IMG/VR virus record: IMGVR_UViG_3300025326_000025
Direction: 5' to 3' (one strand)
Length of the DNA: 64,000 bases
Origin: a virus
Part shown: positions 2,628 to 63,599 of the stretch, in pieces
How positions within the stretch are numbered: the stretch's first letter is position 1
How the letters are laid out: each line of letters starts with the position of its first letter
Translations under genes and position numbers: made by a program
The notes under the pieces: model-generated
What the model saw: only the letters and a program-made list of their open reading frames with translations
Database searches by the model: none
What the model was told of the DNA's origin: nothing

Positions 2628-5304
2628 ACACGATCGTCAAGGTCTTGTCCTTCGTCAGGTCCCATCCGACGCTGTCCGTGTAGCGACCCTTCACCTCTCC
2701 AGCTTCCGTGTACTGGACAGAGTACGTGAGGCCGTACGCTGGCTTGTTGAATCGGAGGTACAGATCGGACGTTGTCCCGTTGATCCACCATAGCTGGTCG
2801 ACGTTAGAGGACCGGCGGTTCAGCAGCCACCCCTGGGATTCGAAATCGGTCGAGCCGTACCGATCATTCTCAGGAAGATAGTGGACGTAGAGGTCCGAGA
2901 CCGTGTACCGCTCCTTGATTTCCGCCCACGACGGAGGCCCAAGCGTCTCGATCCCGCGGCGGTTCTGTGTGATGTTCCAGTTGAGCTGCCCGGTCTTCTT
3001 CTTGAGGGCTTCGGCCTGTCCGGCTCCGCCGACGGCATTCAGGAAACCGTAATCCACCCATGTCCGGTCCGCGACCGTTTCGATCGCCGCGAAGCGGTAG
3101 TCCAGTCCGAGTGCACTCGGGTTGTCGAAGACCCCGAATACGGTCTGCACCGGCTCCAAGACTTCGATCAGGTACGGATTCACCTGAACCGCGCGTTCCA
3201 TGAGGCGCCTCCTGTCCCGGGGGATGCCGACTTCCGCGAAGGCCACGTCGAACTCAATGCCCGAGTTCGCCCCCATGTCGGTCCCCGCTTGGACCGCGAA
3301 GTAGTGCGTCCCGTCCTCCTTGAACCACGGAGACGGCGCGACGGAGTCCGATAGCAAGAGCCATTGTCCGGCGTTCCCGGATAGCGCCTGAAACATCTCC
3401 ACGGCACCGTCGTCATGACCGTAGCCGATGTACTCGACACGGTTCTGCTGGGCATTCCCGGAATCTGTGTACTTGCACCGGGCGACGACGAGGTTGAATG
3501 GGATTTGTGTGAATCCGCGCTCGCTCTGCGGGATGTTCGTCGGAATGGCGAATCGCAGGACAGGGCGTTTCTTGTCCGCGCCCGAGTTGGTCGCGAAACG
3601 GAAGAATCCGTCGGACTTCGAGAACGCGTCCCAAGACATGCTTATTGCGTCCGATTCCGACAGGATGTATACGGTCGACGCCTCCCACGCGCTGTCCGTC
3701 ATGTTCAGGCTGTTCCCGGCGCCGTCCACAATATGCGTCGTGAGACGTAGATCCATATGCCTCGGCGTGAAGGTCAACCCCTTGACGAAGATGTTCTGCA
3801 CGGCGAACACCCACCCACTTGCGCCAAGGTTCCTGAAGAACGGGGACGTGGAGGACGATCCCCAATCTCCGACGACGGTTGGACGCGTGAGGCTGGTGTT
3901 AGAAATGGACGTCACACGTGGGGATCCGGTCTTGAACTCATGAATCGATATCTGCTTCAGCAATTCGGATGTCGAGTTGTAGAGAATCCCGTCAATCATC
4001 TGCTCCGGGATGGACGCCAGATTGAACGTGTAGATTGGATGCGCCCGAACAGCCACGGGCAATACGGCCATGATTGTATCGCCGCCCGTACCTATCTGTG
4101 CTGCGGATGCAGAATACTCCGTACCGACGGAACTGAACGTCTCGAAGAAGTCCGAGAAATTGATGAACGAGAACCCAGGGTAACGCGATGCAATCTCGTC
4201 CTGTTGCTGCCTCTCCTTGATCTCCGTGATGACGTCGGCCAAGAGCTTGACCGTCTCCTTCGGAGGGTTGTCGAGCGTCAGGTTCGTCGTCCATCGGTCC
4301 GATGCGATCGCGTGGTTCACCCCAATGACGTTCCCGATGAACGGCGCCGCGAATCCTCTGGCCGCATCCGCAATCGTCACGCGCTTCCCCAGGAGGCTCC
4401 GTGTGTCCGCGGGCACCGTGACGCTCCCCTTGGGGAACGAGACGGTATGCAGCTCGAGCCACGTCTTCGCCCGTTCACGCGCTTGGTCGTAATTCCGCAC
4501 GGTCTGGTCTATGAGCTGCGCGTACGGAGGAGACCCGGTCCTGTAGTAGACCCCGCCGTCGCCGATGATCGTCACGCCGGAGACGTTGTCGGATCCCTCG
4601 AAGGAGATCTCGTCCGCGTTGATGTCCTGCCCATAGGTATACGTCACGCCCGAAGACGGTGCGGCCGTGCCGCGACGGAGAGTGCTCAGGTACACCTCGC
4701 TACCCGAAGGCCGCAAGAACACATCGAACCCGTAGATGTCCGCGATGCCGATGGCCGCGTCCCAGATGGACCGGTTGCCGTGGAATACGAGCGGCGCGTC
4801 CGGCGATCCCGGGTAGATGTCGGATGTGTTCAACGGGTCCCATTGGACGGTCGTCCCGTACAATAGGCCATTCGGGTAGTTGCCCTTGCCGTCCTGCGAC
4901 CATGCGCTCCCGTCTGAGGCGGTCGGCGATCCTGTGAAGATGGCCCCGAAGTCCCTGTCTCGGTGGACCGCATTGTTGAACGATACGTAGGCGTGGTCGA
5001 GCGTCGCGAGGCGCGTCTGAACCGACAGGAGAGAACGTCCGTTCGCGTCGACGCCCGCGGATCGCAGGATGATTGAGCCGCTGTGCAGTCGCGCAAAGGT
5101 CGACCCATCGGTGGATGCCGAGAAGACGACCGACTGTCCGTCGGAGAAGGATGCGGGATTCGTGTACTTTCCGTTCGTGTTCGCGAGATCGAACGTCGCC
5201 ACGGGACGCTCATTCGCCGCTTCGCGAACGTTTGCCGCCGTCATGTCGTGGGATACACTCTCCCCGTCGATGACGAGGCTGTACTTCAATATCTGCGTCG
5301 CCAT
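2611..5304 (-). CDS. Tail tip/hub protein (897 aa)
   Basis: Last gene of the tail block; N-terminal 350 aa resemble hub/GPD-type proteins (QAR-ERAK-WLE, GSVTVP..D..LLGK-V-I), followed by a coiled segment and a beta-rich C-terminus. Confidence 0.65.
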   Translation of the reverse strand: MATQILKYSLVIDGESVSHDMTAANVREAANERPVATFDLANTNGKYTNPASFSDGQSVVFSASTDGSTFARLHSGSIILRSAGVDANGRSLLSVQTRLATLDHAYVSFNNAVHRDRDFGAIFTGSPTASDGSAWSQDGKGNYPNGLLYGTTVQWDPLNTSDIYPGSPDAPLVFHGNRSIWDAAIGIADIYGFDVFLRPSGSEVYLSTLRRGTAAPSSGVTYTYGQDINADEISFEGSDNVSGVTIIGDGGVYYRTGSPPYAQLIDQTVRNYDQARERAKTWLELHTVSFPKGSVTVPADTRSLLGKRVTIADAARGFAAPFIGNVIGVNHAIASDRWTTNLTLDNPPKETVKLLADVITEIKERQQQDEIASRYPGFSFINFSDFFETFSSVGTEYSASAAQIGTGGDTIMAVLPVAVRAHPIYTFNLASIPEQMIDGILYNSTSELLKQISIHEFKTGSPRVTSISNTSLTRPTVVGDWGSSSTSPFFRNLGASGWVFAVQNIFVKGLTFTPRHMDLRLTTHIVDGAGNSLNMTDSAWEASTVYILSESDAISMSWDAFSKSDGFFRFATNSGADKKRPVLRFAIPTNIPQSERGFTQIPFNLVVARCKYTDSGNAQQNRVEYIGYGHDDGAVEMFQALSGNAGQWLLLSDSVAPSPWFKEDGTHYFAVQAGTDMGANSGIEFDVAFAEVGIPRDRRRLMERAVQVNPYLIEVLEPVQTVFGVFDNPSALGLDYRFAAIETVADRTWVDYGFLNAVGGAGQAEALKKKTGQLNWNITQNRRGIETLGPPSWAEIKERYTVSDLYVHYLPENDRYGSTDFESQGWLLNRRSSNVDQLWWINGTTSDLYLRFNKPAYGLTYSVQYTEAGEVKGRYTDSVGWDLTKDKTLTIVFNASA

Positions 5305-24799: not shown

Positions 24800-24812
24800 T
24801 TAAGTAGTTGCC
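24800..24812 (+). promoter_or_regulatory. TATA-GTTGCC promoter of the inverted cassette
   Basis: TTAAGTAGTTGCC about 23 nt before GTG 24829. Confidence 0.7.
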
Positions 24813-33027: not shown

Positions 33028-33075
33028 ACCAGACACTCTCCGCCGCGAGAACATCGCGGTGAACGTCGTAAAGCC

Positions 33076-33090
33076 CGGCAACTATAAGAA
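33076..33090 (-). promoter_or_regulatory. TATA-GTTGCC promoter
   Basis: TTCTTATAGTTGCCG. Confidence 0.7.
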
Positions 33091-33096
33091 GGATGT

Positions 33097-33160
33097 GCCC
33101 GAGGAGGAGCGACCGGAGACCCACTTTTCCAGAGAAGTAACTCCGGCCTACACTACGGGC
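33097..33160 (-). ncRNA. Y-RNA-like structured RNA 2 (64 nt, minimal form)
   Basis: GCCC-GTAGTGTAG-G-CCGGAG-TTACTTCT-N14-CTCCGG-TCG-CTCC-TCCTC-GGGC; own promoter at 33176-33190. Confidence 0.75.
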
Positions 33161-33175
33161 GAACCGCGTAGAGCA

Positions 33176-33197
33176 CGGCAACTACTTAACGGTTGCG
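33176..33197 (-). promoter_or_regulatory. TATA-GTTGCC promoter with near-palindromic flanks, driving RNA 2
   Basis: CGCAAC-CGTTAAGTA-GTTGCC-G; TATA ends about 23 nt before the RNA 5' end. Confidence 0.72.
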
Positions 33198-33418
33198 TCC
33201 GCGTCGAACTCGGGACTGTCGGCGGAGATGGACGCGGTCTTCGGGTCGTACCCGTACTTCTTCGCGAGAACATCCATGTACTGCCGAACCTGTCCCCATG
33301 CGTCCCGAGCCGTGTTCTGCCACGATGGTCCATAGACGAGTACGGGCGTCGTCTGAGCATCGCGATAGAGGCCGATGAGTTTCGCATGTTCTTCTTCGGT
33401 GAGGCGGACGTGCTTCAT
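33182..33418 (-). CDS. Hypothetical protein (78 aa), translationally coupled to Ro60
   Basis: ATGA overlap with the TROVE stop; MKHVRLTEEEHAKL... Confidence 0.65.
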   Translation of the reverse strand: MKHVRLTEEEHAKLIGLYRDAQTTPVLVYGPSWQNTARDAWGQVRQYMDVLAKKYGYDPKTASISADSPEFDADATVK

Positions 33419-34995
33419 TCCGTCTCCGTCCCGGCGTCCTTCTTGTAGCTGCGTTCGCCCGCCTTCCGGATTGCCTCGAATACGACGCCCGGATCCTTCG
33501 TCTTCTCGTACGCGTCGAAGAAGCCCAAGACGCGGTCGGACCATCCAGCGAGCATGCACACGCCTCCCTCGGGGAACTGCGCCGTCCCGTACCCAGCGAG
33601 GTCGATCGAGTACAGGTAGGGCGTCTTGCCGATCTTCGAGACGTAGCGGTGGTACGACTCCGCAAGACTGTTCCCACGTGCCCCTACGCTCGAGTACATG
33701 GACGCGAACCTCGAGGTGACCTCGCTGTCGTAGCATTGCATGTCGCTGAAGATGACAATCCGGTCCACCGAGATGCCGTTCTCCGTGAGGTAGTCGATCG
33801 CCAGGAAGGCGTTCGTCGCCATCCCCACGTCCGTCGCACGGTATCTCTCGACGGCTTGCAGCAGGGATCCCGATTTCATCGTCGGGACCACCGCGAAATC
33901 CTCGGCGAACACGGACGTGATCGCCTTGTCGCAGATGTGCGTCGAGAGAGCCTGGAGGACGTTCGCCACGTCCTTCATCGACACGGAGGACTTGGCGCTG
34001 ACGTTCGCGTCCATGGAGTGACTGTTGTCCGAGGACAGGAAGGTCGTTCCGGCGAGGCGCGGGACGTTCACCACGCTGAGCCGCATCGCCGTCTCGAGGG
34101 CGTCCAACACCTCCGCAGACTGCGTGACGCTCTGGATCTCCCGGTAGGCCGAGAAGAACCGGAACGGGAACTGCTTCGACTTCCGGACGGCCTCCGGGTC
34201 CGTGAGGACCTTGAGGACCGGCGTGAGGTCGACGCCCTTCTGGATGAAGTTCCGGAGATTCCGCAGGAGTGCCATGTAACCCATGTTCGGGATGGCGGCC
34301 TCCCAGTTCTCCTTCGTGCTTCCTTTCGTGGAGATCGTGACCTCCCACGTGTACGGAGGCGTCAGGGTGCGTTCGAGGACCTGCTTGTAGAGGGCCGCGC
34401 GTTCCGGCATCTTCGGCTTCGGGTGCGTGATGCGCAGGACATCCCGGAGCTTGACTTCCCCGTCCCGGTCGTACTTCGCGAAGCCGTACGCGCCGAAGTT
34501 GTCGAAGGCGTCCGCGAGGCCGCGCTTGAGGGCGTTGCTCATCATGCCGGCCTTCGCGTGGTTCCCGATGTCCCCGAAGGCCTTCTTCCAAGTCGCCACG
34601 AGTTCCGTGAGCTGATCCGCGCGCGTGACGACCTTGGGTACGGTCGAGCGAACGAACGTTCGCGTCTCGGGATACCGGCACGCCTCAACGAGGAGGACGA
34701 GTGGGATGGTGCGAAGGTAGAGTTCCCGGCGCGCGTACACGGCGAGATCCAGGACGAACTGAGGATCCTCCTTCGCGACGACGCCGATGAGCCGCCGGAT
34801 CTCGTCATCACCCTGCGCCGTGGCGTCGTAGAACTTCGGCTCCCCGACGAGGGCCGTCGCGACGCGCGTGTAGAGTTCCATCTTCGGCTGCATCGCGAAG
34901 GCGAGTCCGCCCTCCTCATTCACCGTCGCGTCCGGTCTGTCCTGCACACTACGACGTGCCGTCGCCTTGGGGTTCTGTCGTGCCATGCTCATCAC
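33415..34995 (-). CDS. rsr: Ro60/TROVE domain ribonucleoprotein (Rsr ortholog)
   Basis: NEEGG.AF, LYLRTIP..LL, AKYDR...V.LRDVLRI.HPKP, TWEV.IS..G, YMALLRNLRN, SKQFPFRF..AY; vWA part D.S.SM...IFSDMQ; start between 34986 and 34995. Confidence 0.95.
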   Translation of the reverse strand: MMSMARQNPKATARRSVQDRPDATVNEEGGLAFAMQPKMELYTRVATALVGEPKFYDATAQGDDEIRRLIGVVAKEDPQFVLDLAVYARRELYLRTIPLVLLVEACRYPETRTFVRSTVPKVVTRADQLTELVATWKKAFGDIGNHAKAGMMSNALKRGLADAFDNFGAYGFAKYDRDGEVKLRDVLRITHPKPKMPERAALYKQVLERTLTPPYTWEVTISTKGSTKENWEAAIPNMGYMALLRNLRNFIQKGVDLTPVLKVLTDPEAVRKSKQFPFRFFSAYREIQSVTQSAEVLDALETAMRLSVVNVPRLAGTTFLSSDNSHSMDANVSAKSSVSMKDVANVLQALSTHICDKAITSVFAEDFAVVPTMKSGSLLQAVERYRATDVGMATNAFLAIDYLTENGISVDRIVIFSDMQCYDSEVTSRFASMYSSVGARGNSLAESYHRYVSKIGKTPYLYSIDLAGYGTAQFPEGGVCMLAGWSDRVLGFFDAYEKTKDPGVVFEAIRKAGERSYKKDAGTETE

Positions 34996-35016
34996 ATCTG
35001 GACGTTTCCGTCCCCC

Positions 35017-35030
35017 TGCAATTTAGAAGG
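35017..35030 (-). promoter_or_regulatory. TATA-like box for Ro60
   Basis: CCTTCTAAATTGCA about 26 nt upstream of GTG 34995. Confidence 0.45.
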
Positions 35031-35031
35031 G

Positions 35032-35119
35032 GGGCGAGGATGGTCGAGAACGGGTATTTGCCGGGGTTTCACCGACACCCTGTTAAAGCACAGAAGTATC
35101 CGTTCTCTACACTACGCCC
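35032..35119 (-). ncRNA. Y-RNA-like structured RNA 1 (88 nt, with two-hairpin insert)
   Basis: GGGC-GTAGTGTAG-A-GAACGG-ATACTTCT-N38-CCGTTC-TCG-ACCA-TCCTC-GCCC; same core as RNA 2 with compensatory changes. Confidence 0.78.
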
Positions 35120-35140
35120 GCGAGAGGTAATACATGATGG

Positions 35141-35149
35141 GTATTTAAT
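35141..35149 (-). promoter_or_regulatory. TATA box for RNA 1
   Basis: ATTAAATAC ending about 22 nt upstream of the RNA 5' end. Confidence 0.6.
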
Positions 35150-35186
35150 CGTGCCGACGCCGCGTAGCGTCTGTTGCCGGTGTGTG

Positions 35187-63584: not shown

Positions 63585-63599
63585 GGCAACTACATGAAC
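63585..63599 (-). promoter_or_regulatory. TATA-like GTTGCC promoter
   Basis: GTTCATGTAGTTGCC, 25 nt before ATG 63566. Confidence 0.6.

Follow-up and report, generated by a model that had tools for sequence, protein, structure and literature searches.

The window analysed here is the whole 64,000-nucleotide (nt) stretch of viral DNA recorded as IMGVR_UViG_3300025326_000025, part of a tailed virus that encodes a major head protein, a large terminase, and a tape measure protein and carries an array of eight tRNAs. On its minus strand lies a gene for Ro60 (positions 33415–34995), an open reading frame (ORF) of 526 amino acids, followed by a coupled ORF of 78 amino acids. The pair is flanked by two short intergenic elements on the same strand: an 88-nt element upstream of Ro60 (35032–35119), designated W_A, and a 64-nt element downstream of the 78-amino-acid ORF (33097–33160), designated W_B. 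An earlier reading made from the letters alone (the sequence-only reading) had placed two elements at these positions and proposed that they are Y-RNA-like partners of the encoded Ro60; both elements are seen in the sequence. We consider it probable that W_A and W_B are small noncoding RNAs, each with its own promoter, and that they serve the Ro60 encoded between them as Y-RNA-type partners. The proposed partnership is backed by the tight linkage of the same module to TROVE genes elsewhere, by strong covariation, and by the YrlA-type domain that the module carries in its longer relatives.

The 526-amino-acid ORF encodes both parts that characterize a Ro60 protein, namely, the TROVE ring of HEAT repeats and a C-terminal vWA domain with a MIDAS motif (metal ion-dependent adhesion site). 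The Pfam TROVE match had an E-value of 5e-29, the vWA_Ro60 match reached 24.7 bits, under the Pfam cut-off of 27.7, and the MIDAS motif of the vWA domain reads DNSHS (DxSxS) in the translation. The best solved relative was the Ro60 of Thermus phage phiLo (9KOP/9L5Y), which matched residues 24–497 with an E-value of 5e-37. Translation likely starts at the ATG at 34984–34986 (MARQNP), where the relative from the viral locus L014 starts too.

A covarying handle shared by the two elements

The 64 kb contain the pattern GTAGTGTAG-N7-WTACTTCT at exactly two places, and 100 shuffles contained none. The outer stems (P1; 5 base pairs [bp]) are GGGCG/CGCCC in W_A and GCCCG/CGGGC in W_B, and the inner stems (P2; 8 bp) are GAGAACGG/CCGUUCUC and GGCCGGAG/CUCCGGUC, respectively; both stems remain complementary through compensatory changes. 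The identical motifs and compensatory stems described in the sequence-only reading were thus recovered, and its stem lengths proved slightly too short. Minimum-free-energy folds reproduced the outer and inner stems of both elements, with z-scores of −3.2 for W_A and −2.0 for W_B. In W_A (RNA numbering), P1 joins nt 1–5 to 84–88, U6 is bulged, A7-U83 and G8-C82 pair, U9 lies opposite C81, G10.U80 is a wobble, P2 joins 13–20 to 67–74, and AUACUUC occupies 21–27. The distal part of W_A folds into hairpins at 27–40 and 44–60, the latter with a UGAAACC loop. W_B shares the same handle, and its distal part is a mere 23-nt loop or short hairpin containing GGAAAA. Because the wobble is conserved and P2 of W_B also includes a G.U pair, which on the opposite strand would give A.C, the RNA strand is the minus strand. 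A D-arm-like pairing of GUGU with AUAC around the 5′ strand of P2 was considered and judged incompatible with the strongly covarying P2.

Two covariance models describe the handle, R1 built from seven copies and the broader R2 built from 67 sequences, two of which are W_A and W_B. R1 scored W_A at 86.5 bits (E 2e-22) and W_B at 62.8 bits (E 1.4e-15), the corresponding R2 values were 67.4 bits (E 7.5e-17) and 58.8 bits (E 2e-14), and with filters off both models found W_A and W_B as the only copies in the window. In the 67-sequence alignment, 97.1% of cells pair, versus 65.2% in shuffles and 38–54% when partners were slid. Compensatory two-sided changes occurred in 15 of the 16 pairs (13 of 13 in the first set), and compensatory change supported P2 at all 8 of its pairs. 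The two additional pairs between the stems covary as well (A-U in 56 sequences and G-C in 7; G-C in 58 and C-G in 6), and the G.U wobble is retained in 62 of the 67. The conserved internal loop proposed earlier is therefore a loop only in part, being largely a bulged helix with these two covarying pairs and the wobble.

From its 5′ end, the family consensus runs through P1 (4–5 bp of free sequence), G, a bulged Y, two covarying pairs, a Y.Y mismatch, the G.U wobble, a loop N-A, P2 (8 bp), the near-invariant W-UACUUC, and a variable distal part; on the 3′ side, the P2 3′ strand is followed by C-G-N-Y-Y-N-U-Y-C-U-C and the P1 3′ strand. The 5′ motif has the consensus G-Y-A-G-Y-G-N-A-G with CGAA, CGUA, and CGCA variants and reads GUAGUGUAG, with the core UGUA, in the window; in some relatives, AUCCUUC replaces UACUUC. 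A T arm is present in 17 of the 67 members, and in several the stretch from UACUUC to the P2 3′ strand holds the complete series of T arm, closed acceptor stem-loop, UA, and D arm.

Linkage of the module to TROVE genes

The sequence-only reading had suggested a covariance-model search of TROVE neighbourhoods, and such searches found the module beside TROVE genes in phage, bacterial, and archaeal contigs. All 13 TROVE loci fetched from viral contigs by protein similarity alone had a model match on the strand of the gene, with R1 at E≤0.033 in 10 and R2 in 3. A pattern scan of viral contigs gave at least 120 loci; when 120 loci fetched by RNA motif alone were examined, R1 matched 16, of which 14 hold a TROVE gene, whereas none of the 104 loci without an R1 match does, and these chance matches serve as a negative control. 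Among TROVE loci in bacterial and archaeal genome contigs, 9 of 12 contain copies. Elsewhere, the module occurs in arrays of 3–6 copies, upstream or downstream of TROVE, and among tRNA genes. The handle also occurs in phages of many bacteria (Gordonia phages, Bacillus phage G, crAss001, and CcrColossus) and in bacterial metagenome-assembled genomes (MAGs), so that the proposal of a Y RNA class peculiar to archaeal viruses has to be abandoned. In the archaeal genome G317, which belongs to the phylum of MAG EA_23, four handle RNAs lie directly upstream of TROVE (L160:3026–3441, minus strand; R2 E 1e-10 to 6e-6).

The closest Ro60 relatives, with 73% identity, come from other metagenomes (L014 and L016). 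In L014, one copy precedes the gene and another follows it; in L016, two copies lie on either side, and the last of the downstream ones is divergent. These copies keep the motifs unchanged, and their stems are very different yet complementary. A TAAGTAG-like box lies about 22–24 nt upstream of nearly all of them. The divergent fourth copy of L016 (4847–4935; R1 E 0.04) keeps GUCCGUAGUGUAG and AUACUUC, which are followed by a T-arm-like hairpin (CGGGUUCGACUCCCG), and shows no obvious P2 3′ strand. Three more distant relatives (57–60% identity; L154, L156, and L158) have 4–5 copies directly upstream of the gene. In two of these with 60% identity, L154 (790–3986) and L158 (11–3970), there are 20–24 tRNA genes, some oversized and possibly intron-bearing, and the tRNA array is succeeded by four Y-like RNAs, of which one has the entire YrlA-type domain, then by the TROVE gene, and finally by a small ORF that is possibly ribbon-helix-helix (RHH)-like.

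Further matches were observed in named viruses. In Bacteroides phage crAss001 (MH675552), three R2 matches (E 7e-10, 2e-3, and 1e-4; L140:4521–5235) fill a gap of 900 nt that bears no annotation and immediately follows the TROVE gene gp96; judging from the model, they are probably Y-like RNAs. Gordonia phage Neville (MH651182) has four R2 matches (L141:2507–2972) upstream of a Ro-like gene, over the annotated hypothetical coding sequences 88–90, tiny reading frames that may be mis-calls over Y-like RNA genes. Caulobacter phage CcrColossus has at least seven elements upstream of its Ro60 gene, interleaved with tRNA-Gln (L138:2715–3753), four matched by the R1 handle model and three others by the Rfam model RF02553 below its gathering score; Y-like RNAs were reported for this phage earlier, according to the citation in PMC12135203. 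In the cultured haloarchaeal virus HGTV-1 (NC_021328), a TTTAAGTAG box and a divergent stem-GCGA-stem-AUACUUC element lie just upstream of the TROVE gene (L137:4806–4931).

Promoter-like signals and neighbouring features

Both elements are preceded by TATA-like boxes, noted earlier as TATA boxes on the strand of Ro60. In the promoter-like region of W_A (35120–35149, minus strand), the box ATTAAATA at 35142–35149 lies 22 nt ahead of the first paired base, and TAC at 35127–35129 lies 7 nt ahead of the first base of the RNA. In that of W_B (33161–33189, minus strand), the box TTAAGTAG at 33182–33189, followed by TTGCCGTGCTCTACGCGGTTC, lies 21 nt ahead of the first paired base and overlaps the stop codon of the 78-amino-acid ORF. 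The W_B box also occurs at 8 other places in the window, 24–30 nt ahead of start codons, preceded by TAAA, TTAAG, or CTTA, with TAC about 10 nt ahead of each start codon. Promoters of this class, TA(A/T)A-TAGTTGCC...TAC, are located at 63592, 61821, 54749, 53115, 48324, 35936, 33184, and 33084 on the minus strand and at 24805 on the plus strand; the spacing of their TAGTTGCC boxes from the start codons implies leaderless mRNAs. The box and TAC of W_A are arranged as in these promoters. A box about 26 nt upstream, TA at about −10/−11, and leaderless starts fit archaeal promoters, as in haloarchaeal transcription-start maps, and the geometry of the conserved box ahead of the window's start codons fits archaeal rather than bacterial sigma-70 promoters. 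This architecture supports the predicted independent transcription of W_A and W_B; read-through from W_A into Ro60 is possible.

On either side of W_B lies a copy of a 24-nt direct repeat (TAGTTGCCG.GCT.TACG..GTTC), at 33161–33184 and 33061–33084 (2 matches versus 0 expected), and the two copies enclose a 100-nt unit holding W_B. The second copy (33061–33084, minus strand) is the promoter of the next gene, with its ATG at 33052–33054, and the repeat is a duplicated promoter. The spacer between W_A and the Ro60 start (34996–35031, minus strand) can form two short hairpins, CCCCC..GGGGG and GGACG-GAAA-CGUCC, and includes a stretch of TCTAAATT. A similar hairpin follows the upstream copy in L014, and the spacer could be a terminator, a processing site, or a second promoter.

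The 78-amino-acid ORF (33182–33418, minus strand) overlaps the stop codon of Ro60 through ATGA and had no Pfam match. The small ORF at the corresponding place in relatives differs from it, with only 22–28% identity, and is possibly RHH-like on our reading of the alignment; L014 has none. Since relatives carry an unrelated small ORF or none, we rejected the 78-amino-acid ORF as a conserved partner of Ro60.

Comparison with known Y RNAs

Like Y RNAs in general, W_A and W_B have a TROVE neighbour on the same strand and paired 5′ and 3′ ends that hold a covariation-supported bulged helix. A close counterpart is YrlA, whose gene likewise lies next to that of Ro60 on the same strand and whose 5′ and 3′ ends likewise form a terminal stem. 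YrlA has GNCGAA(N)G near its 5′ end and YUAY after the inner stem, both outside the tRNA-like domain (Chen et al. 2014, PMC4201824). The former corresponds in position to GYGNAG here, and the latter to the UAC of UACUUC, with AUAC in one window RNA and UUAC in the other directly after P2. In W_A, the core is UGUA at nt 9–12, so that position and context agree with GNCGAA(N)G while the strict sequence does not. YrlA is defined by a circularly permuted tRNA-like domain (Chen et al. 2014, PMC4201824; Wang et al. 2018, 10.1101/312249), and T, D, and acceptor arms are all absent from W_A and W_B. Such a domain stands on the handle of the window RNAs in the longer relatives (L154, L156, L158, and L009), and L154_1, L156_2, and L156_3 possess the complete set of T arm, closed acceptor stem, and D arm. 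The Rfam model of YrlA, RF02553, matched L156 at 3579–3696 with 54.6 bits (E 2e-11; gathering score 69) and again at 3362–3475, and R1 matched the same two elements. When the window was searched with Rfam, at gathering score and at E≤10, neither W_A nor W_B was matched by RF02553 or any other family, and the comparison with the Rfam Y RNA families proposed in the sequence-only reading thus brought no match.

Other known Y RNAs also lack the tRNA-like domain. Salmonella YrlB and the Yrl1 and Yrl2 RNAs of phiLo are short, stem-bulge-stem RNAs with a CGAA-type motif (PMC12135203), to which W_A and W_B are likened on the basis of their descriptions; UACUUC is not described for them. In phiLo Yrl2, CGAA lies at nt 10–13 of the stem-bulge-stem, and single changes reduce Ro60 binding 3–4-fold (PMC12135203). 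The phiLo RNAs are encoded by a phage, upstream of the Ro60 gene, and bind Ro60 in electrophoretic mobility shift assays and cryo-electron microscopy. The resemblance to metazoan Y RNAs and Deinococcus Yrn1 (RF00019 and RF01053) is structural: there, too, Ro60 binds a bulged helix of the RNA ends, mainly its 5′ strand, and further factors are recruited by a distal module, but their conserved helix is GGUCCGA/UUGACU, and the window holds no sequence or model match to them. Because they have a YrlA-lineage handle without the tRNA-like domain, W_A and W_B are comparable to Salmonella YrlB and phiLo Yrl1 and Yrl2, and they would represent minimal Y RNAs that resemble YrlB and belong to the YrlA lineage rather than to a new class of RNA.

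TROVE genes have been recorded in archaeal tRNA gene clusters (PMC6333295), in Asgard Nidhogg viruses (10.1101/2021.07.29.454249), and in Borgs (PMC11208441), and one is annotated in HGTV-1 (NC_021328). These records resemble the window in having Ro60/TROVE on archaeal mobile elements, often beside tRNA arrays, and the tRNA-cluster record in particular resembles the architecture of L154 and L158. Unlike the present locus, in which the RNAs are defined and modelled, they concern the protein only. The sequence-only reading knew of no described archaeal-virus example; the Ro60 gene has been reported from such viruses, and a partner RNA is named in none of these records. The search of Chen et al. 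2014 (PMC4201824) was confined to bacteria and bacteriophages, and no archaeal or archaeal-virus Y RNA was described in the full-text literature searched, to which the review PMC10870794 did not belong. Ro60 with adjacent Y RNAs, including short forms without the tRNA-like domain, is already known in bacteria and phages, and the locus extends this known system.

Host and alternative explanations

The host of the virus is fairly likely an archaeon, most likely a soil archaeon. The DNA of the window was found in soil, sediment, and groundwater metagenomes. When the tRNA array was compared with genomes at E≤1e-8, about 20 of 301 sampled genomes of one archaeal phylum matched, the best match being 86% over a whole tRNA-Thr; of the controls, the Chloroflexota gave 1 match and the Myxococcota 0, each in 301 genomes. 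A relative with 56% identity over the aligned part is found in a MAG titled Methanobacteriota archaeon; R1 had no match in this MAG, in which the TROVE contig ends at the gene. The nearest named relatives also include the genome G317 of the same phylum, with its four Y-like copies upstream of TROVE. TROVE genes were found in 2 of 401 sampled genomes of the archaeal phylum, a rarity that is expected of mobile-element cargo. The promoter architecture, the tRNA similarity, and the relatives in archaeal MAGs favour an archaeal host, and the archaeal virus assumed in the sequence-only reading is on these grounds probable but not demonstrated. A haloarchaeal host is unsupported, since the habitat shows no hypersaline sign and the HGTV-1 element matches weakly.

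There is a smaller but appreciable chance that the RNAs are Y-like and the virus is instead a bacteriophage of a GC-rich soil bacterium. The metagenomes in which its DNA occurs are compatible with this, bacteriophages often carry the handle, among cultured viruses the closest TROVE genes belong to phages of bacteria (31% identity), and most Ro60 relatives with 40–50% identity are in bacterial MAGs, such as those of Patescibacteria and Cyanobacteria. Against such a host speak the conserved box 24–30 nt before start codons, with TA about 10 nt upstream and no leader, and the excess of tRNA matches in archaeal genomes over the bacterial controls; moreover, the nearest named relatives (56–60% identity) include an archaeal MAG, and HGTV-1 has its TTTAAGTAG box before the TROVE locus.

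Two other explanations concern the elements themselves. We regard it as unlikely that they are cis-acting parts of the Ro60 mRNA, for example a leader or a trailer serving autoregulation, attenuation, or processing, instead of free trans-acting RNAs. A stretch of 36 nt with two hairpins separates the end of W_A from the Ro60 start, L014 has no clear TATA box between the upstream copy and the gene, so that co-transcription is possible there, and the Salmonella Y RNAs belong to an rsr-yrlBA-rtcBA operon (PMC7790460). However, W_B lies downstream of a second ORF behind its own duplicated promoter, the multicopy arrays found elsewhere stand on either side of the gene and among tRNA genes, the long members are complete YrlA-type RNAs, and co-transcription followed by processing would still yield free Y RNAs. 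Even less probable, in our view, are decayed tRNA genes or tRNA-like relics unrelated to Ro60. It is true that a short stem followed by GUAGUGUAG recalls the acceptor stem, U8-A9, and D stem of a tRNA, that tRNA-Pro starts with GGGCCCGUAGUGUAAC, that the loci are tRNA-rich, and that the L016 copy at 4847–4935 has a T arm. Neither ARAGORN nor the Rfam tRNA model called W_A or W_B as a tRNA, however, and neither forms a cloverleaf; in P2, the sequence that would make up the D loop pairs with a 3′ strand far away, with compensatory change at every pair; and the occurrence of the elements follows TROVE genes, not tRNA arrays. An ancestral origin of the Y-like RNAs from tRNA, as proposed by Chen et al. 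2014, is possible.

Several points weigh against Y-type RNAs of an archaeal virus, the explanation that we prefer. The core UGUA of W_A differs from the canonical CGAA, and C-to-U and A-to-U changes cut the affinity of the phiLo RNA 3–4-fold (PMC12135203). The alignments were fitted to the model structure, so that the pairing counts are somewhat inflated, although the margin is still large. Likewise, GTAGTGTAG and TACTTC were part of the pattern by which many loci were fetched, and the invariance of the motifs is thus partly built in; the loci fetched by protein also show the GTAGTGTAG/UACUUC motifs, with the variants GCAGCG, GUACUG, and AUCCUUC. No RNA sequencing run was found to contain this DNA, and four soil or rhizosphere metatranscriptomes yielded only 35–40-nt scraps of about 80% likeness inside the coding region, which decide nothing. 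As for the host, the virus has no close cultured relative: cultured-phage DNA matched only in short TROVE-coding stretches, the capsid had no match, and the terminase had four relatives. Among cultured archaeal viruses, HGTV-1 alone has a TROVE gene, and its model match was weak (E 0.03–0.07). No CRISPR spacer match accompanies the archaeal assignment, none having been successfully sought, and the binning of short contigs into MAGs may err.

Proposed mechanism and significance

On the model of the Xenopus, Deinococcus, Salmonella, and phiLo systems, the Ro60 ring would bind the bulged helix, mainly by its purine-rich 5′ strand, the putative counterpart of the CGAA/GNCGAA recognized by phiLo and other Ro60 proteins. 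The bound RNA may block or gate the cavity of the ring, tether Ro60 to a host RNA-processing enzyme during infection, or both. In the window RNAs, one or two plain hairpins would take the place of the T, acceptor, and D arms. UACUUC is nearly invariant across bacterial and archaeal systems and would therefore contact Ro60 or fold back on the handle rather than serve a host-specific effector.

To our knowledge, archaea lack PNPase; if the host is an archaeon, as seems likely, the effector is probably not PNPase. PNPase of the host is the enzyme with which the phiLo Ro60 works (PMC12135203). It is conceivable, though we hold it with considerable doubt, that W_A and W_B are the first defined Y RNAs working in an archaeal cell, where they would engage the exosome, aCPSF/RNase J, or RtcB in place of PNPase, with UACUUC as a second contact for Ro60 or the effector, hitherto undescribed and common to phage and archaeal systems. 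HGTV-1 is annotated as carrying RtcB and a nucleotidyltransferase along with TROVE. Together with the frequent company of tRNA arrays, this leads us to speculate that the system helps to repair tRNA or other RNA, or protects against nucleases of the host during infection.

Much work has been devoted to Y RNAs in animals and in a few bacteria, and the binding of a phage Y RNA to its own Ro60 was shown only recently. The handle model offers a compact, covariation-backed description of a putative Ro60-binding handle outside the coverage of Rfam, and it detects unannotated Y-like RNAs beside TROVE genes in phages as well known as crAss001, Bacillus phage G, and the Gordonia phages. The 64-nt W_B, as a natural minimal form, is suited to binding and structural work. 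The locus and its relatives provide candidate archaeal Y RNAs and open the question of what a Ro60-Y RNA particle would do in cells that, as far as we know, are free of PNPase.

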